A stretch of 64,000 bases of DNA from Elusimicrobiota bacterium (GTDB lineage: Bacteria; Elusimicrobiota; Elusimicrobia; F11). A model generated the notes under the pieces. That model searched no databases. It saw only the letters and a program-made list of their open reading frames with translations, and was not told where the DNA came from. Where the stretch lies: NCBI GenBank assembly GCA_044221725.1, contig JBGAON010000005.1:143598-207597 (forward strand), given 5' to 3'. The translations under genes were made by a program, and so were the position numbers. Shown one piece after another: positions 4,975-51,633 of this stretch (position 1 is its first letter; each line of letters begins with the position of its first letter).

Positions 4975-6379
4975 CCGTCAATCCTTTTTTCAGTTGGAAT
5001 TGCCCATGGCTCTCAAGCCGCCATCAATAATTCCGCTTGTTGATTTTGCTGATTCATCCGTTGCATCGCCAGTCGTAACATCGGCAGCGAACGATACCCT
5101 TTAACCTTTCGCAGCTTTGGTTCGACCGTTATTAGAACTGTTCCCAACCATCGCTGCCGTTGATCAGAATTTTTCCAGTGACAGACTCGATTGGTTTTTG
5201 TTTCCACCAATTTGTTCACGTTTTCAATTACGTTCGTCGTTTTGAAACTGATGCCAAGCTGCTCAAAGATCCCAAGTTTCTGCAGCATTAGCGTGTCTTC
5301 GAATCCTTCGTCGAGGCTATTGGCTGCAGAAACATTTACCCGTGACAGCTCGGTTCGAATTTCTTTGAGTGCATTCTTGGCTTGCGTGTACGAACTCGTC
5401 TCATAAGCAACCTGTAGTTTTGGCCGGAAATAATTTTTGTCCGTCTCGCTCAAGTACGACAACACATCCTCGCGCTTGTGCCACGTGCACCGTTGGACAA
5501 ACGCCGTGTCCGGGAATTCGTCATCCACACCTTTGCGGATTCCTTTGCTTCCGTCCATGACGAACAGAATCTCTTTGTCCACACGAAGTCCACGCGCCTT
5601 CAACCCTTGAAAGAATTGTCGAATGACGCGGTGGTTCTCCGAACTCGTCTCTACAAACCCGAGAACCACTTTGTCGCCGGTCAGCGTGATCCCGACGGCG
5701 ATCACCATCTCCTTCTCACGCGAGAACGCTTTGCCGTCGATAAAAATCGCGATGATGTCGTAACTCGACAAGTTGCGTTCTTGCAGCGCACGTAGTTTCT
5801 TGGCAGACGAGCGGATCCACCGCCGGCTCACGCTGTTGCGCTTCAGTCCCATCGTTTGCGCGATCTGTAAGGCCGATTCCTCGTAATTGCCGGCGCTGAT
5901 CCCATGAATCATTCGCGACAGCGTCACCGCCTCGATTGTTGTCGGCTCCTGCAGCGCCGCATAACTCATTAGCGGTATTTCCTCGCCTGTCTTTTTGTTC
6001 CGAACACGCGGAACCAGCGTCCTCACTTTCTGGTCGTACATGTACACCGATCCAGCGTTGAAGCCGTGTCGTCCATTTTCATGACCTCGATTGTGATAGC
6101 GAGGTCCCGCCAACTTGAAAACTTCCGCTTGCAGTTTTTCTTTCACTGCGTTCAACCCCAACGGAATCAATGCTTGGATCATCGCTATCTTTGCCGTCTC
6201 TTCTGGATTTTCTTGCCGCAATTGCTCTCGCAGCATTTCTTTCTTCTTGATGCGTATACCTGGATTTTTTACTGTCATCTTCACCTGTGGCCTCCTTTCG
6301 GCTCTATGATTTCTCGTCGAAACCATTAAAGCGTCTGTGAGGTCATGGGTCAAATTTCAACTGAATTTAGGAAACCGCC
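4975..6379 (-). mobile_element. IS256-family insertion sequence, 1405 bp
   Basis: 9-bp direct repeat CGATCACTT at 4966-4974 and 6380-6388; imperfect terminal inverted repeats sharing TCCT...TTCAGTTG.AATT; encodes a Mutator-type transposase. Confidence 0.9.
5013..6353 (-). CDS. IS256/Mutator-family DDE transposase (true start may be the downstream MTVK Met near 6278)
   Basis: Motifs VPRVR, IFIDGK, VMDGSKG, QRCTWHK, TTNVIEN typical of IS256 transposases. Confidence 0.92.
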   Translation of the reverse strand: MTHDLTDALMVSTRNHRAERRPQVKMTVKNPGIRIKKKEMLREQLRQENPEETAKIAMIQALIPLGLNAVKEKLQAEVFKLAGPRYHNRGHENGRHGFNAGSVYMYDQKVRTLVPRVRNKKTGEEIPLMSYAALQEPTTIEAVTLSRMIHGISAGNYEESALQIAQTMGLKRNSVSRRWIRSSAKKLRALQERNLSSYDIIAIFIDGKAFSREKEMVIAVGITLTGDKVVLGFVETSSENHRVIRQFFQGLKARGLRVDKEILFVMDGSKGIRKGVDDEFPDTAFVQRCTWHKREDVLSYLSETDKNYFRPKLQVAYETSSYTQAKNALKEIRTELSRVNVSAANSLDEGFEDTLMLQKLGIFEQLGISFKTTNVIENVNKLVETKTNRVCHWKNSDQRQRWLGTVLITVEPKLRKVKGYRSLPMLRLAMQRMNQQNQQAELLMAA

Positions 6380-10099: not shown

Positions 10100-10152
10100 T
10101 TACAACAAATTTGCAAGTCCTTAAGATTGGCTTAAGACAGCTCTTGTCTAAT
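10100..10152 (+). promoter_or_regulatory. Conserved four-repeat operator/promoter, copy 1
   Basis: TTAC-aacaaat-TTGC-aagtcc-TTAA-gattggc-TTAA-11nt-TCTAAT, then 7 nt to the GTG start; same spacing as copies 2-4. Confidence 0.75.
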
Positions 10153-10159
10153 AGAAATT

Positions 10160-13100
10160 GTGAAAAAATCCCTCGTAAGGAGCGTTGCGGCGGCTCTATC
10201 GGTTGTTTATTTTGCAACGAACATTGCGTGGGCACACCAATCAGCCGTTGTCGAATTGGATTTCCGGTCTCACGCGACAATTTGGGCGGACCGCAAACCA
10301 ACAGAGCCGTACCCAAAGACTCCGCCAACAAAGCTCGCCGCCCTGCCTGCCAACATCAATGCGCAACTGCCCTCGATCAATCGCCAATTCTCTGCGATCA
10401 AAGAAAACGCCGCTTCGATTTCTTCCCGCATAAGTAATTCGCTTTCGGAGAAGAACGCGCAAATGCTGGCGCCGCTTTTTCGCACGCTGCCGCAAACCGC
10501 GGGCACAATTCGAAAAATTGAAGTACCGCGCGCGGAGCCGCGCGGAGTCGTCGTGCACATTCAGGATGTCCACCGAAATTTTGAAGCGCAAACGAATATC
10601 GGGAACGCCGTCGAGCAGCTGACCCGTGCGAATCTCGTTCAAGCGGTGGCGCTCGAAGGCGCGTTCGGTCCGATTGATTTGTCGTGGTACAACAATTATC
10701 CGTTTCAGGATTCGGTGAAAACCGTTGCCGACTACTTATTAAAGGAACACCGAATTTCTGGACCCATCCGTGCGGGTATGACCGCGGCGAAGAACCAGGA
10801 ACTAGGAACATCGTACATCGGTATTGACGATCCCACTCATTACGCCGCCAATGTCCGGGCCGTGCGCGCCGCAAAGACAGCCGAGACGAACATCAAAGAG
10901 GATCTCGAAAAACAAAATCGCGAGCTCGCCGCTGCGAAACTGAAATATTTCAGCGCTGCGCTAAGAGATTTCGATCGTCACGTGGAGGCTTATCGCCGCG
11001 GAAATGTTTCGTGGGGCGATCACGTGGAATATCTTTCCGACAAATCCGTAACGCGGGTTTCTCCACGCATCGACGCATTCCTTGTTGCATTAACGATGGA
11101 GAAAGAACTGAATGTTGCGGCGATCGAATCGGAGCGTGCGCGACTGCTTGAAAAGCTGGCGGGCAAGCTATCGAAGGGCGAAACGAACGAGTTGCTAGCG
11201 ATGAGCGCGGCTTTCCGTGATGGGCGCCTTAATCACGCTGACTTCTATTCGTTTTTGAAAAGATTCTGCCAACAGAAGTCCATCGACCTAGCGAGCTACC
11301 GTTCATTCGACGGGTATGTTCGTTACGTGTTGCTTTGCGAGCGTTTGGATGTGGAAGCAATTCTCGAAGAAGTGGCGACGCTCGAAAAAACAACCTATTC
11401 ATCGCTCGCACGAACAGAAAAAGAAAAGGAATTGGTGCAAACGGCGCGCGGGCTGTATTTGGCGGGGAAATTAACGGATTTTGCGCTGACGAAGGAAGAG
11501 TGGACGGAATATAGGAGTGAATTTATAACATGGGGAGGGAAAAGGCCCTTTGAAGAATTTTATAAGCAGGCCGAGCTTCGAGACTCGGCAATGGCCAATA
11601 ATCTCATCCACGTACTACGTAGCCGGTACAAAGTACCACGTACGTCTCTCAGCATCCTTGTCACCGGCGGCTTCCACTCGACCGGTATCGACCGCCAACT
11701 TGTGGACGCGGGATACACCGTCGTAACCTACATTCCGAAAATTTCGAAAGTCGACGACGTCGCGGGCTCTTCCTACCTCAGCGTGTTCACGCAGGAAAAA
11801 ACGCCGCTCGACCAACTGTTCGCGGGCGAGAAACTTTTCTTGGCCGAGAAGCCGGTTGCCTCTGCCGCAATGATGTCGTCGAGCGTGCACATGGTAAATC
11901 AAATTAATCATCGCGGCGCAGAATCTCCAGCACCATTGGATGTTCCAGCAAAAGACGTTGCCGAGACCAAGGTGAACGGTGACGAAGCGCAAATGCCGAT
12001 GAAGGGTGGTATTTTGAAAATTCGGGCGAGATCTGGTGGCTTGCTTGATATTCGATTCAACCCGTCATTGCTTCAGCGAATTGCGGGTGTAATCGCGGTG
12101 GGCGCCCTCATGTTGTTTGCTGGCGTTTTGCCCGCGCAAGATTTTGCGCAAGGTTCCCAGGGAGCGCCGGCGGCCACGGCGCAAGATGCGAATGCTGTCT
12201 CGCTTGCGTTGAAAATTACGGGCGTGTTCTTCGGCTTGTTTGCGGTGCTCCAAACCGTGATCACTGTTCAGCGCACATTCGAATGGAACCTTCGCGATTG
12301 GAAGCGCGGACAGGTGAGGCCAAGAGAGATGCTTTCCATGGCAGGCTCGTGGCTGTTCGTTGACATTTCTTTGCCCGCGATGTTCGGCACGGCGTGGATG
12401 ATTTTGCATCTTGGATACAACTTCGCGATTTCAAACATTGGGATGCGGGCGCTCCTTTTTGGAGCTGAGAAAGAATATTTCACTTTTATGGCGATGACAC
12501 TTTTCCTTGCGATCGTTCTTTTTCTGCTACGCGATCCCCGGTTGTATTCTGTCCGGCAGGAACGCGAAGGCGTGACGTCCGGGCCGGAGGGAAATAACGA
12601 CAGAGCGCATTTGCGCTATTTGGTCCCCTGGCTTTTTGCACCGATCATCGCCGGCGCGATGCCGAGCGCGATGTTGGCCCAGTCGGGCGCGCCGCCGGTG
12701 GAAAATTCGAATCGCGGTTTTTATCAAGCCGCCGCCAAGAATGCTGCGGTGGAAATTGCGCCGGAAGCTGACGCTGCTCAGCCGAAATGGAAGGAATTAA
12801 TGAACTTCGGTTTCCAATTCACGGCGACCGGTGACATTCGCGGCGGCTGGGGCAAAACCGATTTTGATTGGAACCGCACGAAAACCGAGCAGGCGAAATT
12901 GGTGGAGATGTTTAAAGGCAACGTGTACACGACGTTCGTGAATGATTTCGACCAAAAATTGAAAGACCGTGAGCTCACGGCCAAATTTCTCAAGAACCCG
13001 ACATGGCGCAAGAAAAAGATTGATGAGATGGTCGAGCTCGCAAAAGGCAGTCTCGGCGTCGGAATTGATTTTGAAAACATGTCGCGCAACAGCACGGCTG

Positions 13101-16100
13101 ATTTCAAGTTGTTCATTGAAGAGCTCGCCAAAGAACTCCACGCGAAAAATTCAAAGCTTTGTGTGATTGTCGAGCCCAAGACCGATACAAACGTCGGTGA
13201 TCGCGGACGCGCGATTGACTGGGCGCATCTCGCAAAACACGCCGACGAAGTTCAGGTGATGGCCTATTGGTACGGGCAAGGCCCCACCCGGCCCGACCAG
13301 ATTGCGCCGCTCAGTTGGATCAAGCAAATGGTCGCGCTCGCGGAAAAACAGGGACTCAAGGGAAAATTCACCGTCGCGCTCACCACATTCGGTTACGACT
13401 GGGCTTTGGATGGGTCCGGCCGGCAGGCGCTCAGCAAAACCGCGTTCTCGGAAATCGAAGCGCAGAAAGCGAATTGGAAGCGCTACGCGGACGGCGGCTC
13501 GATTTACTACGAATACACAGCGAACGACGGCAAGCAACACCGAGTTGTCACGGAAGATCTCGTCAGCATCCAACAAAAATACGAAGAGTTGAAAAAATTA
13601 CAGATCCCCGTCGTGTTGTGGGCGTTTGGTTTTGGTGACCCGGAAATTTTTAAGTGGGGTGAAAAAGCAGGTCTGTCCGTTTATCTTCCCTACTTTAGCG
13701 AGCCGGTCAAAGAGCTTTTGCGCAAACCGCAAACGCCGAAGACCGATAAGGTTGACCTGCAATTCCGCGGAAGCCCGTTTTTCCTCTTGGCATTGATCGG
13801 CCTGTTCATCGGTGCGCCGTTGTCGTTCGCGAATTCCAGTTCGGTCTCCAATTCCGCGAACGCCGGGACTCCGTCGGTTCCGGTTTTTGCTCAAGCTGGT
13901 TTGCTTAAAGAATATTGGTTCCTTCCTGTGATTGTTGGAATCGTAACTGCCGCGGTCATCTTTTTTATTTTGCGGAGCCGGTGGCCTAGCAATCCGCCGG
14001 CGACGGTTATGGAAGCGCCGACGCCGAATTACGCGTCGGACGAAGAACTTAAATCTTTCGTCGAGCGAAATCTTGCCCGATCGTATCTTGACGTGCCACG
14101 GATTTTGGTGGATGCACGACAAATAGTCGCCCCGCCTTCTGTTCAGGATCTGGTTGGTCGTCTTATTGCCGTGTGTGCTGATTTTGTTGCGACGGAACAG
14201 CGCATCGAAGACGCCGACGAAGCCGGATCAAAAATAACTGCTGTACTGAAAGCCATTCAATCCCGAGTGAAATTGAAAGTTGAAGCTCGTTACATCTCCC
14301 AACAAACGGCCGACGATTTTTGGATTACAGATGAGCAGCTTTTATCGAGAACCGCAGAATTCTTGGATTGGATGAATGATGGCCTTGCCGGCGAACGCAA
14401 AAAGCCGGCCACGATGATTCCCGAGCCAGATTTGGTATTGCCCACCGGCAATGAAGTGGGAACATCCTTCGTCGTAAGCATCGGCGGAACGAATGGTTTC
14501 TTGCAGGAAGTAACGCTGTTGGGCCACGGCGAATTTGAGAACAAAGGCAAAACGCGCGTCGATATTTTGCGCTACAAACAGGATATTTCGGGCATTTTCG
14601 ACGAATACGCCCAGGCGATTGCCGCGCGCATGGGAAACCAAAAAAAAGAGCAACGTTCGGTTGGTGTTGTTTGGGCGCATCCGGTTGAAAAGATCCGCGG
14701 GAAGGTGATCGCGCGCGGCTTGTCAAAAGGCTGGCTCGATCCGCAGAAGAAAGTTGTGGACCAGGATATTCAGCAATTGTTCAACGATGCGCTTCGACGT
14801 GCCGGTCTTGCGAACGTAACGGTCAGTATTGTCGTGAACGATACCTTTAATCCGCTGGCGGCACTGTCGTACATTCTTATTGGCAAACGCAAAAAGACCA
14901 AAGCGGCGCTTGCCGGTGCGATTTTGGGCACCGGTTCGAACGAAGCTTTCTTCGTGCCGGGATTTGGTTGGATAAACGGCGAGACCGGCGCCGATGATAT
15001 GACCAACCGCGATGGTTACGAACTATTTTCTACGCTCGAAGACAAAATTGTCGCTGCCGAAGATCCCGTCAATGAACACCGCTTTGAAAAACGTGTCGCT
15101 GGTAATTATCTCGCGAAGCTGTTTGTGCTGCGTCTCAAAGCAATCCGAAACGGAACAGGCATGTTTCGCTGGCTCGACGAAATTCCCCAATTTCGCGACG
15201 AAACATTGGACAGTTCGTTCCTGTCGTTTGTTGCGGACAAAAATATTCGGGACCTGATTTCCATTGAGCGAAAAATTCGGGAAATGTATTGGCGATCGCG
15301 CAAACATTCCCGTTTTGTTGCCAAGTTGTTGTCCCACACGGAAAAAACTTCTTTCGCGAGCGATCACGAATTGTTTGTGATGTACGAAGCCGTAAAAGCG
15401 ATTGCCGAACGATCCGCACGGCTTTTGGCCACGCATTACGCGGGTATCGCGCTGCGAAACGATCCGGAAATTAAGGAGCCGCAATGGTTCGCCGTTGAAG
15501 GCAGCGTGTTCAACAAATACCCGGGCTACAAAGCCATGGTGATGAATGCGATTGTGAAAATTGTCGGAGTGGAAAAAGCCGCCCGCATCGAATTGATCGG
15601 AGCCGAGGAAATTGCCCAAAATCTCGAAGGCGTGGGCGCTGCCATTCTCGCGATCACGGCGTACAACAAGCAGCGTGTTGCGCCACACGACGCGGTAAGA
15701 GTTTTTGAAGAGCTTCGCGCCGCGTCCGGCGGACGGCGGGTCACGGTTGTCGGAGCCAATGATTTTGCGGTGCAACATGAGGCTATTGGAAATCTGTTTA
15801 ACGTCGCGGGGCCCACGGAAATCGCTGTATTAACGGGAGGCAACTGGGCCCAAACCGGCGCGCGTGTCGAAGCGGCACCGCATACGAAAGCCATTGGAGT
15901 ATCGTCCGAAGATTTTCTGCAGTTGCTAAACATTTTCGCGGAAGCGTTCTCCAATTTGAATGGCGTGAACCAGCACATTGTTCAAGAATTCCGAGAGGCG
16001 GCGCAGCGATCGGGCGTGCTCGTGCCGAGAGAATTCTTGACTGGCCTTCACGTTACACCCGACGCGATTTACAACTCGCATCCGGCGGTCGGTGCACTGA

Positions 16101-17749
16101 ACGAGGCGCTCCAGCATCTTGCTTTACCGGCGGAGCACCCCATTCACTCTTTCGGGCCGAAAGATACGCACGTGTACTATCTGGACTTGGTTGTGCGGGA
16201 TCGTGAAGGAACTGTGCGCGTGGTACCCACCCATCGAAGCGCACCCATTATCGCGAGCGACGTCGAAATTCTCGGTATGGGACCTCGAACCATGGAAGTG
16301 TGGGCCAATATCATCGCGGAATCCGGTGGCATTATTCAGCTGGGCGCCGCACCGCACGTCGATCTGCCGACAGGCCAACATTACAGGGCGGCGGGGGTCA
16401 AAGCGCGCATGCACGATCTCGCCTCGCAAGGCCTCGTCGTTGAAGAATTCTTAGATGGAGTGACGCGCTACACATTGAAACTGCCGACAAACGCGGTCGA
16501 CTTGCGTGCGGACTCTGTTTCGACGAATTCTGGGGGCGCTGCGTCAGCGGCGGGCTATCACGGGCTTATCGTGTTTTTTACGCCGAGTCGAAAAGTTTTG
16601 ATCGCTTCCGTGCTTTTGTTGGTAACAGAAATTGGCGGACTTTTGTGGGGAAATTCCCATTCGTTGTTGCTTGGGGCCACCATCGCTGCCGCGGCTCCGT
16701 TTCATGTCGTTTTTGCGGAGCAAGGCAAAGATCCGTGGCTCGCGCGCGCCAATCAAAATGACCAGATGCTCGGTCATGTGTTGACTTGGGGGCTTTATCC
16801 GCTCGCGTTTCTTGCGATGCGCGGCTTATCGGCGATGATGTTGCCGTTGCCAGCGGTCGCTTATGTTCCTCTGGCCGCTGCGGTCGCCTATCATTTGCAA
16901 AAAGATTTTCGCTATTTCCGCCAAACGTTGAACCGCATTCGTGCTGCTGAAAAAATTGCGGCCGTGAATCACGCAATCGAAAGTTCCCCAGCGGATTCCA
17001 ACGGGAATGCGAGCGTGCAACACGTGCTCGCGAATCTTCGAGCGCGGGATCGCAAAGATGGCGGTCTCTCCAAAAATATTTCGGAACTCACGCCACATTT
17101 AACGAACAAAATTTGCACGTCACCGCTGTTGAGATGGTCGCGGATCGTCATGTTAAGCGCTGCAATGTTGGGGACGAACGGAATAAGCCAAGCGAACACC
17201 GCCAACGTGAAGCTCGACCGCGGGAGCAACATCGTCACGGTTGTGGTTATGGACGCGAGCGATGTCGAAGACAAAAAGGGAAGCCTGTTGCACGACACGC
17301 TGCGCAATATCGAAAAGCAGATTCGAGAGGGGAAGCTTGGCGCGACGGTCACCGTGGCCATCCCGGAATCGATGGTGGAAGACGCTTCCGCTCTCAGGGA
17401 AAGTGCCAAGCGATTGGCGCTTGATTTTGACGTTCCGGTCGTCGTGACGATTGACCGCGCGATAATCGGTCGAGGATTTGATCAACCGAACCGTTTCACG
17501 TTGAACCAACACTACGATGACGCTACGAGAGAAGTTGATAATCACGGTTCGCACAAGGCCGCGGAAAAAATTCGTTTCTACCAAAACAAAAATTTTGCGG
17601 GCGTGAACGTGAAAGTGGTGGCTTCGAAAGCGACGCCGTACACGGCGAATGGCGCGCTGACCCAAATTGCGCAGATGACAATTGCTGGCGTGACGATTTC
17701 TATCAGCGAAGCAATCAAGCTCGCCGAACTCGCCTACAAGATGGCGTAA
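10160..17749 (+). CDS. Giant protein 1 (2529 aa): signal peptide, conserved N-terminal domain, TM segments, GH18-like domain, hexokinase-like domain, TM module, C-terminal domain
   Basis: N-domain QDVH..EAQ, ALEG, GIDD, LTKEEW, GGFHS, YLSVFTQEKTPL (~10547-11841); GH18 GIDFE, DEVQVMAY, FGYDW, LWAFG (~12808-13641); hexokinase LPTGNE, IGGTN, VVNDT, ILGTGSN, FEKRVAGNYL, EGSVF (~14420-15650). Confidence 0.85.
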   Translation: MKKSLVRSVAAALSVVYFATNIAWAHQSAVVELDFRSHATIWADRKPTEPYPKTPPTKLAALPANINAQLPSINRQFSAIKENAASISSRISNSLSEKNAQMLAPLFRTLPQTAGTIRKIEVPRAEPRGVVVHIQDVHRNFEAQTNIGNAVEQLTRANLVQAVALEGAFGPIDLSWYNNYPFQDSVKTVADYLLKEHRISGPIRAGMTAAKNQELGTSYIGIDDPTHYAANVRAVRAAKTAETNIKEDLEKQNRELAAAKLKYFSAALRDFDRHVEAYRRGNVSWGDHVEYLSDKSVTRVSPRIDAFLVALTMEKELNVAAIESERARLLEKLAGKLSKGETNELLAMSAAFRDGRLNHADFYSFLKRFCQQKSIDLASYRSFDGYVRYVLLCERLDVEAILEEVATLEKTTYSSLARTEKEKELVQTARGLYLAGKLTDFALTKEEWTEYRSEFITWGGKRPFEEFYKQAELRDSAMANNLIHVLRSRYKVPRTSLSILVTGGFHSTGIDRQLVDAGYTVVTYIPKISKVDDVAGSSYLSVFTQEKTPLDQLFAGEKLFLAEKPVASAAMMSSSVHMVNQINHRGAESPAPLDVPAKDVAETKVNGDEAQMPMKGGILKIRARSGGLLDIRFNPSLLQRIAGVIAVGALMLFAGVLPAQDFAQGSQGAPAATAQDANAVSLALKITGVFFGLFAVLQTVITVQRTFEWNLRDWKRGQVRPREMLSMAGSWLFVDISLPAMFGTAWMILHLGYNFAISNIGMRALLFGAEKEYFTFMAMTLFLAIVLFLLRDPRLYSVRQEREGVTSGPEGNNDRAHLRYLVPWLFAPIIAGAMPSAMLAQSGAPPVENSNRGFYQAAAKNAAVEIAPEADAAQPKWKELMNFGFQFTATGDIRGGWGKTDFDWNRTKTEQAKLVEMFKGNVYTTFVNDFDQKLKDRELTAKFLKNPTWRKKKIDEMVELAKGSLGVGIDFENMSRNSTADFKLFIEELAKELHAKNSKLCVIVEPKTDTNVGDRGRAIDWAHLAKHADEVQVMAYWYGQGPTRPDQIAPLSWIKQMVALAEKQGLKGKFTVALTTFGYDWALDGSGRQALSKTAFSEIEAQKANWKRYADGGSIYYEYTANDGKQHRVVTEDLVSIQQKYEELKKLQIPVVLWAFGFGDPEIFKWGEKAGLSVYLPYFSEPVKELLRKPQTPKTDKVDLQFRGSPFFLLALIGLFIGAPLSFANSSSVSNSANAGTPSVPVFAQAGLLKEYWFLPVIVGIVTAAVIFFILRSRWPSNPPATVMEAPTPNYASDEELKSFVERNLARSYLDVPRILVDARQIVAPPSVQDLVGRLIAVCADFVATEQRIEDADEAGSKITAVLKAIQSRVKLKVEARYISQQTADDFWITDEQLLSRTAEFLDWMNDGLAGERKKPATMIPEPDLVLPTGNEVGTSFVVSIGGTNGFLQEVTLLGHGEFENKGKTRVDILRYKQDISGIFDEYAQAIAARMGNQKKEQRSVGVVWAHPVEKIRGKVIARGLSKGWLDPQKKVVDQDIQQLFNDALRRAGLANVTVSIVVNDTFNPLAALSYILIGKRKKTKAALAGAILGTGSNEAFFVPGFGWINGETGADDMTNRDGYELFSTLEDKIVAAEDPVNEHRFEKRVAGNYLAKLFVLRLKAIRNGTGMFRWLDEIPQFRDETLDSSFLSFVADKNIRDLISIERKIREMYWRSRKHSRFVAKLLSHTEKTSFASDHELFVMYEAVKAIAERSARLLATHYAGIALRNDPEIKEPQWFAVEGSVFNKYPGYKAMVMNAIVKIVGVEKAARIELIGAEEIAQNLEGVGAAILAITAYNKQRVAPHDAVRVFEELRAASGGRRVTVVGANDFAVQHEAIGNLFNVAGPTEIAVLTGGNWAQTGARVEAAPHTKAIGVSSEDFLQLLNIFAEAFSNLNGVNQHIVQEFREAAQRSGVLVPREFLTGLHVTPDAIYNSHPAVGALNEALQHLALPAEHPIHSFGPKDTHVYYLDLVVRDREGTVRVVPTHRSAPIIASDVEILGMGPRTMEVWANIIAESGGIIQLGAAPHVDLPTGQHYRAAGVKARMHDLASQGLVVEEFLDGVTRYTLKLPTNAVDLRADSVSTNSGGAASAAGYHGLIVFFTPSRKVLIASVLLLVTEIGGLLWGNSHSLLLGATIAAAAPFHVVFAEQGKDPWLARANQNDQMLGHVLTWGLYPLAFLAMRGLSAMMLPLPAVAYVPLAAAVAYHLQKDFRYFRQTLNRIRAAEKIAAVNHAIESSPADSNGNASVQHVLANLRARDRKDGGLSKNISELTPHLTNKICTSPLLRWSRIVMLSAAMLGTNGISQANTANVKLDRGSNIVTVVVMDASDVEDKKGSLLHDTLRNIEKQIREGKLGATVTVAIPESMVEDASALRESAKRLALDFDVPVVVTIDRAIIGRGFDQPNRFTLNQHYDDATREVDNHGSHKAAEKIRFYQNKNFAGVNVKVVASKATPYTANGALTQIAQMTIAGVTISISEAIKLAELAYKMA

Positions 17750-17827
17750 CACAATCCTAGTCGCTTTTTTCCGTCGATCTTTAAGCAAACACATCTATAA
17801 ATCAGTTCGTTTTTCGACGGAATTCGT

Positions 17828-17880
17828 TTACTGAAAATTTACTACTTCTTAAGGCAAACTTAATCCACTTCCGATAGCCT
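17828..17880 (+). promoter_or_regulatory. Conserved four-repeat operator/promoter, copy 2
   Basis: TTAC-tgaaaat-TTAC-tacttc-TTAA-ggcaaac-TTAA-11nt-TAGCCT; followed by a short leader with GGAGG (17901-17905) before TTG 17910. Confidence 0.8.
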
Positions 17881-17909
17881 GTCTTATAAGAATTCGGGGG
17901 GGAGGCCTT

Positions 17910-20900
17910 TTGATTCAATTCCGACGCGTATCCACGATGATATTTGCGCCAAAAACAATCGCGATTTTGTTGGTTTCGGTTCTCACATACGAAACTGTTG
18001 GTACACCTCTAGCAGAAGCCAGTCAATACAGCTCGCTGTGGTCCGAACGACGCAAAACTTCCTCTGCCACTCAAAACGAAAACGGCCAGAATCTTCTCGC
18101 TTCGCTTCCGTCCCAGTCTCTTCTGAAGCAAATGCCGTCGGTGAAAGCGGCGCTTCCGTCCTCCGTCGTAACAACACCGATCTCGAATGAAGCAAGAAAA
18201 ATTCCGCCGGTGTTGCGCGCGCTCGTGGCGGCTGTTCCCCAGAATCAGGGCATCGTGAGAGAAATTTATGCTCCTCTCTCATCGAGCAACGAACCGATTG
18301 TGTTGGCGCAAGACGTGCACATGAATTCGGAAGCGCAAATGAATTTGGCCGGGGTCATCCAAAATATTGTGCGCGAAAACAAAATTGATGTGATCGGAGT
18401 TGAAGGAGCGTTTGCGCCGTTCGATTTTGCTCTCGCACGCAAAAGCGGTTCAACGGAATCGCGCACACAATTGGCCAAGGCTTTTATGGACAAAAAACTC
18501 ATGGGCGCTGCTTCCTACATTGGTCTCGTGAACGATTCGCTACCGCCCATCGTCGGTGTCGACGATGAGAAACACTACGATGCGAACGTGCTTGCGTATT
18601 TGACGATCCGGCCGATGAAAAAGAAGACGCAGAAAGACCTTCAGAAGCTCAAGCGAAACTTGGATGAACGAAAGGCACAGGAATTCTCGAAAGAAATGCT
18701 CGCGTTCGACGCGTTGCGCAGCGGTTACCACGAAGGAACAATCCCGTTTGGTGTGTATGTAAAAAAGCTTTCGGCGCTCAGCTATCAGCTTGTTGATAGT
18801 TCGTCTTCGCCGGACAGCGGAAAGCGGATCGCTGAAAGCTCTCTCGCCGTTGAGCAGTTCATCGCCGCGTACGAAATGGAAAAGTCACTCGACTTTGCGC
18901 GCGTCGAAGCCGAACGCCGACGCGTGATCGAGAAACTCGCATCGGTGCTCAAAGGCGAGGATGTCACGACGCTCATCAATCACAGCGTTGCGTACAAGAA
19001 CGGACAGATCGGTTTTGGAACTTACTACCGTTTCCTTAAAAATTTGTGCGAAAGCAATGGCGTGCGCCTAAGCGACACGACCGCGTTCGATAACTACGTT
19101 CGTTATGTCTTGCTGTCCGACGGTATCAAAGCGGATCAATTGTTCGCAGAAATCACGAACATAGAAGACCGGGTGACAAAGGCGCTCGCACGCACGCCCG
19201 TCGAAAAGCAGTTGGCTGACGAAGCCGAGCATCTCGCGCTGGCGAACAAGCTCATTGAGTTTGAGTTGACGCCGGAGGAATGGGCCAAGTATTCGTCATC
19301 CGGGCATGATTTTGGCCGGGATCTAGGTGCTCTTGAGGATTTGACCGCTTTTGAAAATTTCTACCGTGAAGCCGATATCCGCAGCCACCGCATGCTCTCG
19401 AATTTGCTGGGACGAAATCGCCAGCGGGCATCGGTTCTGCTCACCGGCGGTTTTCACACCTCGCAAATGACGTCGTTGCTCAAAGAGAAGAAAATACCCT
19501 ACATCGTCGTGTCGCCGAAGCTCACAAAAGTCTCTGAGGACGAATCGGGCAGCGCGTACCTAAGCGAATTCTCACGGGAAAAAACTCCGCTTGAGAAAAT
19601 GTTCAGCGGTTCAAAACTTTTTGTTCTGCCAAAAACACAAATGGCCGGTTCGGCGGGCGGCCTCACAACATTCAAAGCGTTTGTGGTTTTCTTGATCGGT
19701 ATTGCCGGCCTATCCACGGGAAAAACCCGGGCGGATGTGGATTTGACCATCAACAATGTTCCGGTGCACGCGGTGGTTCAGCGCGGCGATATCCGCGGCG
19801 CTGTCGAAACCGTGGAGTTATCAGAGAAGGGTACCCCACAAACCTATTCTCTTTTGTATCCGTCGCTTTCAGCGCGCGGCATGGATTTCTTTTTTAATCG
19901 CGTCGCTTCACCGAAACGGCTCGTCATGGCCTTGGGCGGCATTTTAAGCGCTGTATTGCTGTCGCCCGCTCCGGCTCAAGCGGCTTTGGCCCCAAGGCTC
20001 TATGGCGTGGCCGCCGAAACGTTGTGGGGGGCCGCCGGTGGCGCGTTAATTTTTTCGCTTATCATCGGCAATTTTTTGTGGACCCGTTTCAATACACGGG
20101 AACCAAGAGTGAGCCCGCAACCCGACAATCGTTTTCGTCCAGGCCTCGACCAATTGGAGCAAAAAGAAACCCCGGCGAACCTGAACGTGTGGGTGGATCC
20201 GAATGGTGTTGTGCGCCCCGATGTTTTAACCGGGGGATTTAGCGATCAAGAATCAAAATCCGGTTTGCCGAGCGTGGAAGTTCGATTGGCCGATGGTTTC
20301 CATTTCTCGAACGGGGATCTCGTGCGCGTTTCGCTCAGTGGTCCGGCGGGTTCGCAATCTTCCGGCTGGGTTCCAGCGGCCGATCGCATGGTTTTCCCCT
20401 ACCACGGCGAAACGGGCATGGGGCTGCGCGCCGTGCATGCGGATGGAACAGACGCCGTCGCAACTGCCGTGCCGGGAAGTTTCGCAACGGCAATCCCCGT
20501 CTCGGAAGCGGCGCCTGGCAATCTCGGTTCGTTCGATTTGTTTACGGTGCGCACGCCTCCCGAAGAACCGGTTCAAGACCGAATCAGCGTGAACAACCAA
20601 AGCGTGAACGGTGACCGCGTGCAATTGCAGTATTCGTTACCGTCCGACATGTTGGTTCGGTTCTCGCACGTAAACGCCGGAGCCAACGGCCAAACCGAAC
20701 TTGGGTCGGGAACCGACTTTTTACCGGCGACACAGTTTAAAGACGGATACGCGATTCTCATTGCGAACGGACCGCTGAGAGCCGGGAATTCTGCTGATAT
20801 CGGATTTGCGGCGTATCGGTTGGATGCCTCGGGAAATTACGTCGAAGTGAAATTTCAGCCGGGGGAACCCGATTTGCCAATAACGGCCACGCTGGCGAAC

Positions 20901-38900: not shown

Positions 38901-41900
38901 CGACAGAAACGCCTAAATGAAGTTATCAACGCGTATACGAATTATCAAACCGCCCAAAAGGAATTGGCGGATCTAAGGAAGAGCAACACACCAGACCAGG
39001 CCAAAGCAAACGAGCTACAAGAAAAGATCACAAGAAATGAAGGCATGCTTGGAAATAGCGGTGATTATAAACGCTTCGTAAGTTTAGCGGAATCAATTCT
39101 AAATTTCGGTCCAACCGTTATTCCGACGAACGAACCGGTGTGGAACGATCGTTTGGAAGATTTGATTGAGGGCGGGAATGTGACCGTCGAGTCCGCGTGG
39201 GCGCGAATTTCGGCGAGCGAACGTCGGTCGCTGTTGGATATGCACGATAACGATTTGGGCCGCGCCCAAACTTATCTGTGGGACCGCTTGAGAAATTATA
39301 TCGATGCGCGCATTCGCATTGAGATTGAATACGTGTTGCTCGCCGACCATGCTTCGTTGCTGTCGGATGTGCGCGCTGAATTCATTCGTGTTCGTGCGCT
39401 CGGCGCGGAAAATCCCGATTTCAATCGTGAGCGACAGGCGTTATTGGACCGTATCGTGGAATCGGACGCGATGCGTCCATCAACGGAAATTTTGTTGAGT
39501 CTTTCGAACCCGGCCGACATTCAGCAAAGGATTTATCAAGCTCTGAATGATCTTGTGCCAGTCCCGGCAGCGCGTCAAGAACAACAAACTGTGGAACTGA
39601 CGCCACTTCCGCCGCCACCGGCACCACCAACAGCGGAGCAAGTTGCCGCCCAGAATGCCGCTCAAGCAGCGCAGGCAGCGAAAGCCGCACGAAACAGAAC
39701 GGCTGCGCGCGTTTTTGGTGTGCTGATCGAAAACCGGGAACGATTGCTGGGCCGGTACGGAAGCCGCCTGCGCCAGCTGAGCCGCGTGAACCCGTTGTCC
39801 GTGGATAGCAACGAAGTGAAATCGGTTCTGAACGCGATCGTGAAAGATTCTCGTTTCGCCCCAGCATGGCCGATTTATCTTGAGCTTTCGGGAAACAACG
39901 AACAAGAAGCGCAGAAATTGTTGCTGAACGATGTCGTCACGCTCATCGATTTGCAAACGACCGCAGAAGCAGAATACGCAAGTGATCCTTTGGCGCTGAA
40001 AGATTTGGCGCTCAGCGTTCAAGAGGAAGCGCTCATAATTAAGCGAAACGGTGGACTTTCGCAGGGAGACAAGCGCGCATTTGAACAGAGGGTTTTCCGG
40101 TTCCTTGGCGCGTCGGCGACAGAGATATTAAAGGACAAGAAAACAACGGTTGATGCTGCCACGCGGGTTTCTGACTACGAGATTGTGCAGAAGGCGTACG
40201 ACGAAGCCGTCAAATTAGCGGAAGCGGACATCACAAAAGAAATCAATCCGCTCAAAGGCGACGCGTTCCGCCACCATCTCGAGAACAGTCGGTTGAATGC
40301 GGCGCTTCAAGACACAACCATCAGCGAATGGAAACGTTGGAATCTCCGTTCAAAACGCGACCGCGAGATCGCGGCGTTCGCTAGGGATTTCGTGAAACTG
40401 GTCAACGCGCAGAAACGGGTTTCGCCAGCGGCAACGGTGGCGCTCAAGGCGCGTTGGGAAAGCGAAGGTCTTAACGGTCGCGCACCGCCCAGCTCAGATA
40501 TCGTTAAAGAGGCCTATTGGAAAATCCCGTCTTCTCTAAGAAAAACCTATTCCGAAGTTACCGGATTCAATCCATCCTCATCCGAACCAAGGGTCTCCGC
40601 GGTTGGAGTAAACGCCGATGCGATCGGCGATGACGTGGCCCGCCAACTGCTACGGGACGCGTACGACAGCAACTACGTTATTGAAGGCTCCAAAAATTCC
40701 GCTGGCGACGCGGAACTGGACCTAAACGAACAAAACAAAGCTATTGCTCAGCGTCTGATCGGTAGCGACGGCATGTCCGCTCTTAAAGCGGCGGTGGAAC
40801 TTGCGCTATCCATTGTTGATAACGGTGATGACGATGGTTACCGCACCCGCGATCAGATAAAAGAAATCACAAAAGACGGTCGCGTCGTCTTTGTCTTCAT
40901 CGAATCGAATCACCCGACGTGGAAAAACAATTTCTTCCTTTGTTTCAATAGCTCGGACGAAAACATTCTTGCGCTTGGCGGCCGCGGATTGAACAAAGAT
41001 CAGCGCAAAGCTTACGTGCCGGCGGCGCTTGTTGTCGGTCTCATGGGAATGCGTACGGCCCACGAAAACGGTTCCAAAACAAAGCTGAGCCGGCAAGAAA
41101 TCGATTTGGTGTTGCGCCTTATTGTGCGCCACGAACTTCAGCACGCGGCCGAAAAAGAAAAGGGGAATGCCACGTGGTTGAATCACGATGCCGAAGTCAC
41201 GGAAATTCTGAATTTGCTCGCGAAGGGCGGCTTCTTCCCTGGCGCGAGCGCGCAGCCAGGCAATACGCCAGACGTTGCGAAAATAGCTGTGGTCGGCGGT
41301 CTTGTTGATGAGGCAAATAAAGACGGACGGATCGTGTCACTATTAGCGCCGGTGACCGCCGATTCTCCTGTTCGTTACCGTTACGCGAAAGCGGAACAAA
41401 ACCTTAACGGCGCGCCGGATATTAATTTGGCGATTGAGCGCGTGTTCGAAATGCAACGCGAAGCCGTCAACACCGATTTCGACAACGCCGGTAAAGGAAA
41501 ATACTTCAAGATACTCGCGACCAGCGGTTCAATCCTCACGCGTCGCATAAAAGTTGGCGCCAATCAGTTCGTGCGGTTTGTTGTGAACATTGCGCGGCAA
41601 TCGAAACCGGGCGGATTGGGGCTTTCGCCAGTTTGTTTCCTCTGTTGGAACACGGTTCGCACAAGCTTCCCGCACGAGTTCGGCATGGTGCTCGGAAACC
41701 TGCGAATTTATTTCAATCCCACCGCGGTGTGGCCGCCGACGGTGTTTGGTCCCGCGTCGGAACAGCCGCAAGCGCTCGTCGTGACATTGAATGATCAGGA
41801 GCATCCGAGCGTTTCTCAAGGAAACATTAGTAAGGTGAACACACTTCAAGAGTTGCTCACGCAGTGGGTGCGCGCGAACCAATCCCCCAGTTTGCAAGAT

Positions 41901-44498: not shown

Positions 44499-45546
44499 AA
44501 GTTCGCATAGTAAGTGCAACAGTAAGTAGTTGAGGAGTTGGTTATCCCTTTAAACTGAGGGATACCATGAAATACAAGCACTTAACCGACGGCGAACGAG
44601 AAACGTTGTCGTATATGAGAGCTTGTGGCAAATCGATACGAGAGGCAGCGTTCTATTTGAATCGAGCGCCCAGTACGATTGCCAGAGAAATACGGCGCAA
44701 TAAGAGTCGAGCACGTTATCGGTCCCATCTGGCCCATCGGGCTGCTATAGATCGACGCCATCAGACGCTCCGACGTCAACATCGGTTTAAAGCTGATCCT
44801 CAGCTGAGAGATCGTGTTATCGAATGGCTTAAGGCAGGATGGTCCCCTGAGATTATCGCAGGCCGACTGAAGCGTGAAGCCCATGGCAAGTCCGTAATAC
44901 ATCATGAGACCATCTATCGTTGGATTTATCGATACGATCGATCTCTCATCAAGTGTCTCGTCCGATCACATCCTCGTCGGTATCGTCGTCATCAACGGCG
45001 CTGGCCGAATCGAATTATCCCTCGACGGATTTCAATTCTCCAGCGCCCCGATTTCATTAACCAGCGCAAACAACCAGGGCATTGGGAATCTGACTTGGTG
45101 TGGGGATCTGGACGCGCTGCTCTGCAAGTGCTTGTCGAACGAAAAACCCGTTTCGTCTTTATTCGCAGAACCCGCAATAAATCCGCTCAAGCCAATTACG
45201 ATGCGCTCTCTGAAGCATTGGAACAAATCCCAACTTCTTTACGGCGCACCATCACGTATGATAATGGAAGCGAGAACACACTGCATTGTGAACTCAATGA
45301 CCGTTTCCAACTGCAATCGTTCTTCTGTCAGCCGTATCACGCCTGGGAAAAGGGAACCGTAGAAAACACCAACGGTCTGATCCGTCGATACTTCCCCAAA
45401 CGCACCAACTTCGATACCATCTCAGTTCACCAAATCGAAGACGTTCAACGTCGCCTTAACAACAGACCTAGAAAATGTCTTCGCTTTCAAACAGCCGGGG
45501 AAGCCTATTCTTCCACCTTCCGTTGCACTTAAAACGCGAATTCAGC
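44496..45546 (+). mobile_element. IS30-family insertion sequence, 1051 bp
   Basis: 26-bp imperfect inverted repeats TAGAAGTTCGCATAGTAAGTGCAACA (44496-44521) and CGTTGCACTTAAAACGCGAATTCAGC (45521-45546); flanking 3-bp direct repeat GCG at 44493-44495 and 45547-45549. Confidence 0.88.
44567..45532 (+). CDS. IS30-family transposase, 321 aa
   Basis: YKHLT..ER, STIAREIRRN HTH, WSPEIIAG, HETIYRWIY, GHWESDLV, LVERKTR, TITYDNGSE, WEKGTVENTNGLIRRYFPK. Confidence 0.96.
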   Translation: MKYKHLTDGERETLSYMRACGKSIREAAFYLNRAPSTIAREIRRNKSRARYRSHLAHRAAIDRRHQTLRRQHRFKADPQLRDRVIEWLKAGWSPEIIAGRLKREAHGKSVIHHETIYRWIYRYDRSLIKCLVRSHPRRYRRHQRRWPNRIIPRRISILQRPDFINQRKQPGHWESDLVWGSGRAALQVLVERKTRFVFIRRTRNKSAQANYDALSEALEQIPTSLRRTITYDNGSENTLHCELNDRFQLQSFFCQPYHAWEKGTVENTNGLIRRYFPKRTNFDTISVHQIEDVQRRLNNRPRKCLRFQTAGEAYSSTFRCT

Positions 45547-45555
45547 GCGTAAGAT

Positions 45556-45608
45556 TTACATTTTGTTTACGCGTTCTTAAGGAATTCTTAATCCGCGGCG
45601 ATTAGTAT
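45556..45608 (+). promoter_or_regulatory. Conserved four-repeat operator/promoter, copy 3
   Basis: TTAC-attttgt-TTAC-gcgttc-TTAA-ggaattc-TTAA-11nt-TAGTAT, then 6 nt to ATG 45615. Confidence 0.85.
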
Positions 45609-51580: not shown

Positions 51581-51633
51581 TTACAGAAAATTTACGCGTT
51601 CTTAAGGCGAACTTAAGACAGCATTCGTATAGT
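51581..51633 (+). promoter_or_regulatory. Conserved four-repeat operator/promoter, copy 4
   Basis: TTAC-agaaaat-TTAC-gcgttc-TTAA-ggcgaac-TTAA-11nt-TATAGT, then 6 nt to ATG 51640. Confidence 0.85.

Follow-up and report, generated by a model that had tools for sequence, protein, structure and literature searches.

Do signal-peptide-like segments deep inside giant bacterial proteins mark sites at which signal peptidase I cuts the chain? The question is raised by a 64,000-nucleotide stretch of an Elusimicrobiota bacterium (the window; GenBank assembly GCA_044221725.1, contig JBGAON010000005.1, positions 143,598 to 207,597, forward strand), which carries four giant genes, A to D. In the products of A and B, an initial annotation had reported five internal segments (s1 to s5) with the basic, hydrophobic, and small-residue succession of Sec signals and had proposed either that the giants are processed into separate mature proteins, as viral envelope polyproteins are, or that whole secreted genes were captured in frame with their leaders. 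In the part of the literature considered here, it is an open question whether giant genes in uncultured bacteria yield one enormous protein or cut pieces.

We found that the signal-like pattern of these segments sits at the background rate of membrane helices. With a probability of roughly 0.6, the segments other than s4 would be membrane-spanning helices of lineage-specific giant modular inner-membrane proteins and not cutting sites. Cutting by signal peptidase into separate mature proteins received no general support, since the pattern occurs at the base rate, no junction motif was found, the site in s4 is not conserved, and the cargo is mostly of cytoplasmic types.

Five internal segments and the base rate of membrane helices

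All five segments were found, in frame and on the + strand, at 0 to 6 nucleotides from the positions first reported for them, which are given in brackets below (aa, amino acid positions; K/R, lysine or arginine; KD, Kyte-Doolittle hydropathy; ORF, open reading frame).

10160-17749, + strand: giant gene A (2529 aa), defined from the ORF list, its translation, Pfam, and a hydropathy scan
17910-44498, + strand: giant gene B (8862 aa), with a signal, a TIKI-like head, and ~24 membrane helices in clusters
12074-12142, + strand: s1 (A aa 639-661; reported at ~12068-12140), first helix after the head and first of a two-helix unit; Leu at -3, Ala at -1
12194-12250, + strand: partner helix of s1 (A aa 679-697); a loop of 19 residues, none of them K/R, lies before it and a K/R-rich loop after it
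12611-12685, + strand: s2 (A aa 818-842; reported at ~12617-12682), weakly hydrophobic, with three prolines; Met at -3
13766-13837, + strand: s3 (A aa 1203-1226; reported at ~13772-13834), first helix of the two-helix unit that follows GH18; L-S-F-A before N-S
13916-13972, + strand: partner helix of s3 (A aa 1253-1271); it surpasses all other segments of A in hydrophobicity (KD 2.67) and has R-S-R after it
16568-16888, + strand: helix cluster of A (aa ~2137-2243), from the hydropathy scan
17132-17197, + strand: s4 (A aa 2325-2346; reported at ~17129-17197), a short run of hydrophobic residues within a conserved domain at the C-terminus
19656-19712, + strand: first hydrophobic helix after the head of B (aa 583-601), followed by K-T-R
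19914-19985, + strand: s5 (B aa 669-692; reported at ~19911-19985), first helix of a two-helix unit, with a hydrophobic (h) region of 14 residues followed by S-P-A-P-A-Q-A
20022-20078, + strand: partner helix of s5 (B aa 705-723), with a K/R-rich stretch after it

These five segments are a hand-picked subset of the 102 internal hydrophobic cores of A to D, defined by a best 11-residue Kyte-Doolittle mean of at least 1.6. Controls were taken from the same genome and comprised the internal cores found in 241 ordinary multi-pass proteins (900 residues or fewer), the internal cores of 26 paralogues of the giants (see below), and 336 N-terminal signal candidates, unverified as signals, which were chosen by their n- and h-regions only (basic n-region, hydrophobic stretch, no later helix). 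A cleavage-site matrix learned from the N-terminal signals of the genome by expectation-maximisation drifted into the hydrophobic core and placed its sites inside h-regions. Explicit rules with controls were used for this reason. The rules, of the type "basic, hydrophobic, small at -3/-1," are our own crude stand-ins for SignalP.

Strict rule: window giants 10/61; 26 paralogues 36/219; ordinary multi-pass proteins 247/1589; signal candidates 209/333 (63%)
Loose rule, which captures all five segments: window giants 20/102 (19.6%); paralogues 52/411 (12.7%); multi-pass proteins 328/1936 (16.9%); signal candidates 205/336 (61%)
Loose rule plus Pro or Gly at -8 to -4 and a polar residue at +1 to +3: window giants 11/102; paralogues 31/411; multi-pass proteins 134/1936; signal candidates 127/336

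By the strict rule, the pattern is present in 16% of the cores in the window giants, in the paralogues, and in ordinary multi-pass proteins alike. The loose rule revealed no excess of the window giants over ordinary multi-pass proteins (Fisher p = 0.50), nor did the third rule, either for the window (p = 0.16) or for the family (p = 0.67). Protein A alone scored 4/19 under this third rule, which had been written after sight of those same four segments. Thus, signal-like internal helices are by themselves no evidence of cutting, because multi-pass proteins of the same genome display them as often. Any helix whose N-end stays inside on insertion into the membrane has the layout of a signal peptide, namely, a basic flank, a hydrophobic core, and small or turn-forming residues at the far end, and it is because of this layout that a fraction of helices reads as Sec signals.

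The individual segments differ in their hydropathy. The best 11-residue Kyte-Doolittle means of s1 (2.75), s3 (3.09), and s5 (2.35) are strongly hydrophobic, and those of s2 (2.10) and s4 (1.98) are lower than the value of 2.22 that marks the 10th percentile among the 336 signal candidates; over 19 residues, the best window of s4 reaches 0.83 and the mean of s2 is 1.66. At the reported sites, the residues at -3 and -1 are small in s3 (Ser, Ala), s4 (Ser, Ala), and s5 (Ala, Ala), with Leu and Met occupying position -3 of s1 and s2, respectively. In s2, an alternative A-Q-S site lies two residues further on. The tripartite n-h-c layout is present in all five segments, as judged by the loose rule. 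Length and hydrophobicity fail to separate signal candidates from helices, and the uncharged run has a median of 18 residues in the former and 21 in the latter, with values of 20 to 46 in the five segments.

Each of s1, s3, and s5 is paired with a second strong helix located 13 to 28 residues downstream, the connecting loop containing 0 or 1 K/R. The complete unit consists of D-h-x-F-(N/R), 4 to 8 residues, the helix, the loop of 13 to 28 residues, and the second helix. The D-h-x-F-(N/R) motif occurs nine times in the 26 paralogues, and the three occurrences (3/9) that precede a helix are exactly those of s1, s3, and s5. Just before s1, at 11969-12064 (A aa 604-635), the AlphaFold2 (AF2) model contains a small four-strand beta unit with a predicted local distance difference test score (pLDDT) of 55 to 72, which carries D-I-R-F-N.

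A family of giants with a common head

Genes A to D are four tandem giant genes, all on the + strand, the last two of which are as follows.

45615-51542, + strand: giant gene C (1975 aa), with a TIKI-like head, a tight two-helix unit, and an alpha-glucan phosphorylase-like module
51640-60450, + strand: giant gene D (2936 aa), with a TIKI-like head, four helices, a GlgA-like glycogen synthase module, and more helix clusters

Protein A is laid out as an N-terminal signal, a TIKI-like head, a five-helix block, GH18, two helices, a hexokinase, a helix cluster, and a C-terminal domain; no Pfam or NCBIfam domain was recognised in B. Pairwise alignment showed that the part common to A to D is limited to the first ~600 residues, at ~30% identity. 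A profile of this head region gave 38 matches in the 2.82-Mb genome to which the window belongs, with E values of 1e-260 to 1e-297 for A to D. These matches fall in 26 long ORFs, the paralogues, which range from 775 to 8881 codons and sum to 60,593 codons, or 6.4% of the genome. Each of the 26 has an N-terminal signal and a TIKI/ChaN-fold head, followed by membrane-helix clusters between unrelated enzyme modules. None matches A past residue 640, and the cargo chain is thus not common to the paralogues. In A to D, likewise, a profile-matching head stands directly behind the N-terminal signal and is followed by a variable cargo chain with helix clusters. A pattern scan for the head in one genome per species identified 78 loci, all of them in assemblies titled Elusimicrobia, Elusimicrobiota, or Candidatus Obscuribacterium magneticum. 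Close relatives have 6 to 31 family matches per genome, with frames reaching 12,118 codons. No publication on a TIKI-headed giant family was found in a narrow literature search, which is a thin basis for calling the family unpublished.

In the reading that we favor, the chain would start with a Sec-type signal and a TIKI/ChaN-fold, hydrolase-like head, after which unrelated enzyme and signalling modules would be spaced by single helices, two-helix units, and larger bundles. The helices would act as uncleaved start-transfer and stop-transfer sequences, threading the chain through the membrane and tethering it there. The parts of A concerned are as follows.

10160-10237, + strand: N-terminal signal-peptide-like helix of A, with K/R and a hydrophobic stretch that ends in A-W-A before His
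10412-11755, + strand: TIKI/ChaN/erythromycin-esterase-fold head of A (aa ~85-532), with a helical insert

Searches of domain libraries gave no model above its cut-off on the head of A (PF04187, 15.2 bits versus a cut-off of 27.7). PF04187 (ChaN, Tiki superfamily) matched 31 of 50 aligned members at E values of at most 1, the best being 4.1e-7. The AF2 model of the head, built from the 50-sequence alignment, has a mean pLDDT of 79 and exceeds 90 over aa ~90-530. The top rows of a VIA-align comparison were ChaN (2g5g; Z 9.3, 193 residues aligned, root mean square deviation 5.9), EreC (6xcq; Z 8.0), and Bcr136 (2qgm; Z 7.8); further rows included HopBA1 (5t09; Z 7.4), Bcr135 (2rad; Z 7.3), a TraB-family chain (8bqs_DQ; Z 7.0), and RRSP (5w6l; Z 6.4). 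Foldseek returned nothing at E values of at most 0.001 for the whole head model, and a PDB sequence search with the head profile gave no meaningful match. Ten polar residues are invariant in the 50-member alignment (D136, H138, N140, Q144, E166, D223, E314, R326, R474, and H506). The structural model thus shows the head to have the fold of the TIKI/ChaN superfamily.

The head has this fold in common with the TIKI/TraB-PrgY/ChaN/GumN/erythromycin-esterase superfamily, and many of its members give weak PF04187 matches. It differs from the superfamily by a helical insert of ~250 residues, by its junction to giant variable chains, and by its first motif, which is Q-D-V-H and not G-x-x-H, the usual form. 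In PrgY and Tiki, the domain sits behind a signal and before membrane helices, as does the head here.

The N-terminus is stereotyped throughout the family and comprises K/R, a hydrophobic stretch of the form L-S-L-V-Y-F-x-T-N-C-A-F-A, a His residue, and then x-P-E-x-N-F-W-x-E-R-R-K. In the AF2 model, the N-terminal signal of A is a separate helix (residues 2-36), followed by a disordered linker (29-84). The conservation of this signal (Y-F-x-T-N-C-x-F-A) is unusually high and odd for an ordinary Sec leader. The near-invariant W-x-E-R-R-(K/R), at 10283-10300 in A (aa 42-47), is found ~10 residues past the putative N-terminal cleavage site, at the same position family-wide. Together, these two conserved elements may mark a special targeting or anchoring step.

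The cargo of the paralogues, as recognised by Pfam, includes WD40, PP2C with FHA, dehydroquinate synthase with adenylate kinase and HD, metallo-beta-lactamase/beta-CASP, protein kinase with sigma-70 r2/r4, 2-hydroxyacid dehydrogenase, and GGDEF. Family-wide, the modules that follow the segments are mostly of cytoplasmic types, including hexokinase, GlgA-like, phosphorylase-like, sigma-70, kinase, and GGDEF modules, and because of this cargo, export after a cleaved signal would make little sense. Since an ordinary stand-alone glycogen synthase (482 aa) and alpha-glucan phosphorylase (569 aa) are encoded elsewhere in the genome, the copies in the giants are extra and divergent.

14300-15655, + strand: hexokinase module of A (aa 1381-1832), PF00349 and PF03727

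No other copy of the hexokinase was found in the genome by tblastn. Hexokinase-like modules occur in 3/300 other genomes of the phylum, each inside a long open frame. After the hexokinase of A, a stretch of ~60 residues (16169-16357; aa ~2004-2066) matches 11 database proteins of 195 to 4679 aa at E values of at most 0.001; it looks like a small shared module, and by their length some of its carriers are other giants. Protein B contains H-E-L-Q-H (aa 7741-7745, 41130-41144) and H-E-L-S-H (aa 8620-8624, 43767-43781) in soluble context, and these stretches could belong to zinc-protease-like modules.

A DNA element, TTAC..TTTnC..TnCTTAAG-(4-6)-CTTAA, is conserved 24 to 47 nucleotides upstream of the starts of the four giant genes.

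10100-10135: upstream element of A
17828-17863: upstream element of B
45556-45591: upstream element of C
51581-51616: upstream element of D

In a strict-pattern search of the whole genome, all hits (5/5) preceded family ORFs, the fifth being located on another contig before a paralogue of 1925 aa. The two CTTAAG-type words of the element could pair in a hairpin or form an operator. Mobile elements are also present at the locus and in one relative (L041), in which a family gene is broken by an insertion sequence.

5013-6353, - strand: Mutator-family transposase gene, upstream of the giant cluster
44567-45532, + strand: IS30-like transposase gene (HTH_38 plus rve), between B and C

Conservation of the sites and probable capture of a GH18 gene

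Conservation of small residues at -1 and -3 in orthologues, which the initial annotation had put forward as a check, was not observed: the s4 site is not kept in P0005, the sole homologue, and no orthologue was found for s1, s3, or s5. An exhaustive HMMER search with A 1833-2529 retrieved 15 proteins at E values of at most 0.001. The C-terminus of one of them, P0005 (1176 aa), matches the last ~225 residues of A (E value of 1e-17, 26% identity over 239 columns). The hydrophobic stretch of s4 is kept (R-I-V-M-L-S-A-A-M-L in A, R-C-V-A-L-S-A-A-V-L in P0005) and the c-region is not (T-N-G-I-S-Q-A before Asn in A, E-I-Q-L-L-H-G-A before Pro in P0005). At -3 and +1, P0005 thus has His and Pro, respectively, and its stretch contains a Glu. 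Proline at +1 is incompatible with signal peptidase I. We therefore reject s4 as a conserved cleavage site. Given its 19-residue hydropathy of 0.83, s4 is most plausibly a buried helix that belongs to a conserved, soluble domain at the C-terminus and not a membrane helix. Among proteins of 115 to 368 aa, no relative of s4 with the C-terminal module was found. Deep in the multi-helix protein P0005 there are also two stretches of twin-arginine type, R-R-N-F-L and R-R-K-F-L, and a hydrophobic run comes after each of them.

For s1, s2, s3, and s5, no homologue covering the segment was detected in word-index, phylum-wide, or relative-genome searches. The word-index search with A 620-1300 recovered only A itself. 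Residues 560-720 of A had no match in 12 relatives, and residues 690-1790 of B had none in 30; with B 540-760, 12 relatives matched only at the end of the head, stopping before s5. Split forms, in which a gene for the head alone would stand before a second gene starting at a signal-like helix, were uninformative, as the two short cases examined were accounted for by insertion-sequence disruption (L041) and apparent frameshifts (L015). Beyond the head, GH18 is the only part of A for which the phylum-wide genome search found relatives (12/301 genomes, this genome counted).

12797-13684, + strand: GH18-like module of A (aa ~880-1175), PF00704 at 41.5 bits (cut-off 29.6) and alignment with five stand-alone relatives

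Pfam places GH18 at A 943-1141, and the alignment with the five stand-alone relatives widens the domain to A ~880-1175. Of the two segments that had been described as immediately flanking this domain, s2 ends ~40 residues before it and s3 starts ~30 residues after it. The genome contains three stand-alone GH18 paralogues, of 342, 491, and 648 aa, and relatives have open frames of 361 to 383 codons. Judged by eye, six of the six stand-alone relatives examined start with a signal-like leader a few residues before the domain. In the alignment, s2 falls in the columns of the N-terminal leaders of the five relatives, which end where the linker of A to s3 begins. Because the leader columns and the end points coincide, the region that begins with s2 and stops short of s3 is colinear with an entire secreted precursor, a match that is one of position and not demonstrated homology of the leader. 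The proposal that secreted genes were captured with their leaders is therefore supported for s2 and GH18, and nothing comparable was found for the other segments.

Probably, s2 once served as the leader of a secreted GH18 gene and came into the chain by fusion of that gene, as its alignment position suggests, and it would have been kept there as an internal export signal or as a relic. The joining of a secreted gene, along with the position of its leader, to a giant chain is clear in this instance and bears on the mosaic assembly of the giants. In the acid motif of the GH18 module, the final Asp and the Glu, which are invariant in the alignment, are kept, and Leu and Gly stand at the two acidic positions before them. 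Protein A thus lacks two of the four positions, all of which are present in each of the five stand-alone relatives. Two of the stand-alone GH18 paralogues (C5:39755-41230 and C1:235659-237605, outside the window) have a similar C-terminal tail of ~70 residues after Pro/Thr-rich linkers, and this tail resembles, by eye, a secretion-sorting tail.

Cutting, topology, and likeness to known systems

Several observations weigh against the reading of the segments as uncut helices. In 19/62 nonredundant family members, the hydrophobic core that comes first behind the head conforms to the loose rule, versus 280/1589 matched controls (p = 0.017); given a basic flank, the counts are 19/31 versus 280/715 (p = 0.023), p values that overstate the effect because the sequences are related. 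Several relatives end this first helix in textbook c-regions such as S-P-A-Q-A, and its flanking charges place the N-end inside in 42 members versus 10 (of 62), the orientation that signal peptidase needs. The h-regions of s3 and s5 are only 13 to 14 residues long and are followed by Pro-containing c-regions, which is the shape of a cleavable signal and not of a long anchor. In addition, the N-terminal signal puts the head outside and the charge bias puts its C-terminal flank inside. Finally, two strong helices (A 1206-1224 and 1253-1271) separate GH18, which has secreted relatives, from the hexokinase, which is of a cytoplasmic type and needs ATP; since there are exactly two, both modules lie on the same side. 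Tight turns between helices are expected to be rich in small and turn-forming residues, and such residues in the short loops of two-helix units could explain the enrichment at the first helix instead. In two-helix clusters, an excess of K and R precedes the first post-head helix in 15 cases versus 0 (12 residues compared on each side).

The result is a topology puzzle in a family that fills 6% of a genome, with an exported-looking head, cytoplasmic-type cargo, and an opposing charge bias. The flanking charges of s1, s2, s3, and s5 favor an N-end inside and a C-end outside, which clashes both with an exported head and with helix parity between domains. Only B gives a consistent path, in which the head is outside, helix 583-601 is followed by K-T-R and a cytoplasmic stretch, s5 runs outward, and, after a 15-residue loop, helix 705-723 returns and is followed by a K/R-rich flank. 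A charge-optimised topology of the TopPred type was rejected, as it fits the positive-inside rule only by inventing helices inside soluble domains, for example A 304-322, which is part of the helical insert of the head at pLDDT values above 90. An arrangement with all large modules on one side, joined by two-helix hairpins, was likewise rejected, since a cluster size of 1 is the commonest family-wide (35/83 at the middle threshold). Family-wide, the loops of two-helix clusters are on average not depleted in K/R. We infer that the helices are not cut, and the membrane side of each module is an inference of the same kind.

Cleavage by signal peptidase I of some N-in/C-out helices at their periplasmic ends, which would turn the head and individual modules into separate membrane-anchored or periplasmic proteins, is improbable in our judgment and is kept as a minority reading for its best candidates, namely, s5, s3, s2, and, more generally, the helix that comes first after the head. 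Besides the enrichment at the latter (19/62 versus 280/1589, p = 0.017), it draws on the tripartite shape and the small -3 and -1 residues of s3, s4, and s5, on the short h-regions and Pro-rich c-regions of s3 and s5, and on the position of s1, s3, and s5 at the start of units with loops of 0 to 1 K/R and a shared upstream D-h-x-F-(N/R). For its part, s2 comes after a strong helix and a loop with 6 K/R, is followed by a low K/R count, and precedes a module with secreted relatives. The genome also has two Peptidase_S26 genes, and the literature, in the part consulted, leaves open whether giant bacterial proteins are cut. These points are opposed by the overall frequency of the pattern, which is that of ordinary helices, by Leu and Met at -3 of s1 and s2, respectively, and by s4, which is unconserved and too weakly hydrophobic. 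No orthologue that keeps any of the sites was found with the queries used, the cargo is mostly of cytoplasmic types, and in another giant the 420 residues upstream of the hexokinase-like module are free of helices. Moreover, if the head is exported, the first post-head helix runs from outside to inside, and its "site" faces the cytoplasm. In a fuller form of the same idea, the TIKI-headed giants would be bacterial polyproteins cut by signal peptidase I at procoat-like units, each made of a short beta mini-domain with D-h-x-F-(N/R), a signal-like helix with small residues at its end, a short loop of at most 1 K/R, and a second helix; the head would be detached and the modules separately anchored. 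We regard this as decidedly unlikely. If true, a single promoter and a single act of targeting would suffice to bring a full set of borrowed enzymes to the envelope. The candidates are now narrowed to a few testable sites, namely, s5 and s3, s2 before GH18, and the first post-head helix family-wide.

Processing at other sites by another protease, either the TIKI-like head or the two H-E-x-x-H modules of B, would make the signal-like helices irrelevant, and we rate this as very unlikely. The ten invariant polar residues of the head are what an active enzyme might be expected to keep, and its fold comes from a superfamily with proteases, which include Tiki and RRSP; the superfamily also has esterases and haem-binding proteins, and the fold therefore gives no activity. 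Against the soluble context of H-E-L-Q-H and H-E-L-S-H in B must be set the results of Pfam and NCBIfam, which recognise no protease family in A to D. No recurring junction or candidate cleavage motif was found, with R-S-E-x-R occurring 5 times in 290,779 residues of long ORFs (chance level) and no 5-mer present in more than two copies in the cargo of A to D. Peptidase domains are proposed as processing enzymes by the authors of work on the giant proteins of Omnitrophota, in the portion of that work seen here (see below). We give equally little credence to the notion that s2, and perhaps others, are decayed signals that no longer span the membrane, GH18 being cytoplasmic with the hexokinase and possibly nonenzymatic. 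The weakness of s2 (11-residue mean of 2.10, below the 10th percentile; 19-residue mean of 1.66), its three prolines, the location of GH18 and hexokinase on one side with two strong helices between them, and the loss in A of two of the four acidic positions kept by the five stand-alone relatives are all in keeping with such a fossil leader. Conversely, the K/R-rich loop before s2 and the low K/R content after it are those of a working N-in/C-out helix, and the Asp and Glu that are kept in the GH18 motif are the residues that matter most for catalysis.

The closest counterparts of the uncut, helix-threaded giants that we favor are those of Omnitrophota, which are described as membrane proteins with a signal, many helices, and metabolic and regulatory domains (West-Roberts et al. 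2023, 10.1101/2023.11.21.568195; 2026 preprint, 10.64898/2026.06.07.730766). Of 916 long proteins in the sections of the 2026 preprint consulted, 39% are classed as having a signal plus helices and 46% as having helices only (10.64898/2026.06.07.730766). According to the same sections, giants were analysed in chunks, and signals called internally, on any but the first chunk, were treated as artefacts and suppressed (10.64898/2026.06.07.730766). SignalP on N-truncations, the check proposed in the initial annotation, is prone to false calls. The portions available of the Omnitrophota work state that the cutting of giants is open, point to peptidase domains and not to signal peptidase, and report topology predictions that are likewise unreliable. 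As far as these portions go, the two groups are alike in their very long ORFs, N-terminal signal, and many helices among metabolic, regulatory, and glycan-active domains. The giants analysed here differ in belonging to the phylum Elusimicrobiota, in their smaller size (0.8 to 8.9 thousand residues), in sharing one TIKI-fold head and an upstream DNA element, and in having no C39 or S8 peptidase or SecA-like domain in A to D by Pfam.

The likeness to viral envelope polyproteins, on which the initial annotation relied, is closest at s2, with its strong helix, basic loop, signal-like helix, and exported-type domain. In flavivirus and hepacivirus structural polyproteins, the host signal peptidase cuts, and stop-transfer and signal-like helices alternate at module boundaries. 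Of the modules, GH18 exists elsewhere as a whole protein (six stand-alone relatives, 342 to 648 aa where a full ORF was called); no such protein of 115 to 368 aa was found for s4 with the C-terminal module, and hexokinase-like modules were seen only within other long frames. Unlike in the viral case, the s4 site is unconserved, most modules are of cytoplasmic types, and no dedicated protease or repeated junction motif was found.

Among bacterial and phage systems, M13 procoat is a helical hairpin cut by signal peptidase, and Bradyrhizobium FbcH is a cytochrome b/c1 precursor with an internal signal. The units of s1, s3, and s5 are similarly made of a signal-like helix, a short loop with 0 to 1 K/R, and a second helix, with a basic flank after the partners of s1 and s5, a geometry that in procoat is the one cut by signal peptidase. 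They differ in being embedded deep inside chains of thousands of residues. A search of the literature on bacterial polyproteins with internal signals found nothing usable. Ordinary multi-pass proteins have helices of the same length and hydrophobicity ranges, with the signal-like pattern at a comparable frequency (16.9% versus 19.6% in the window giants by the loose rule); the helices of the giants differ from theirs in separating very large unrelated soluble modules and not forming one compact core.

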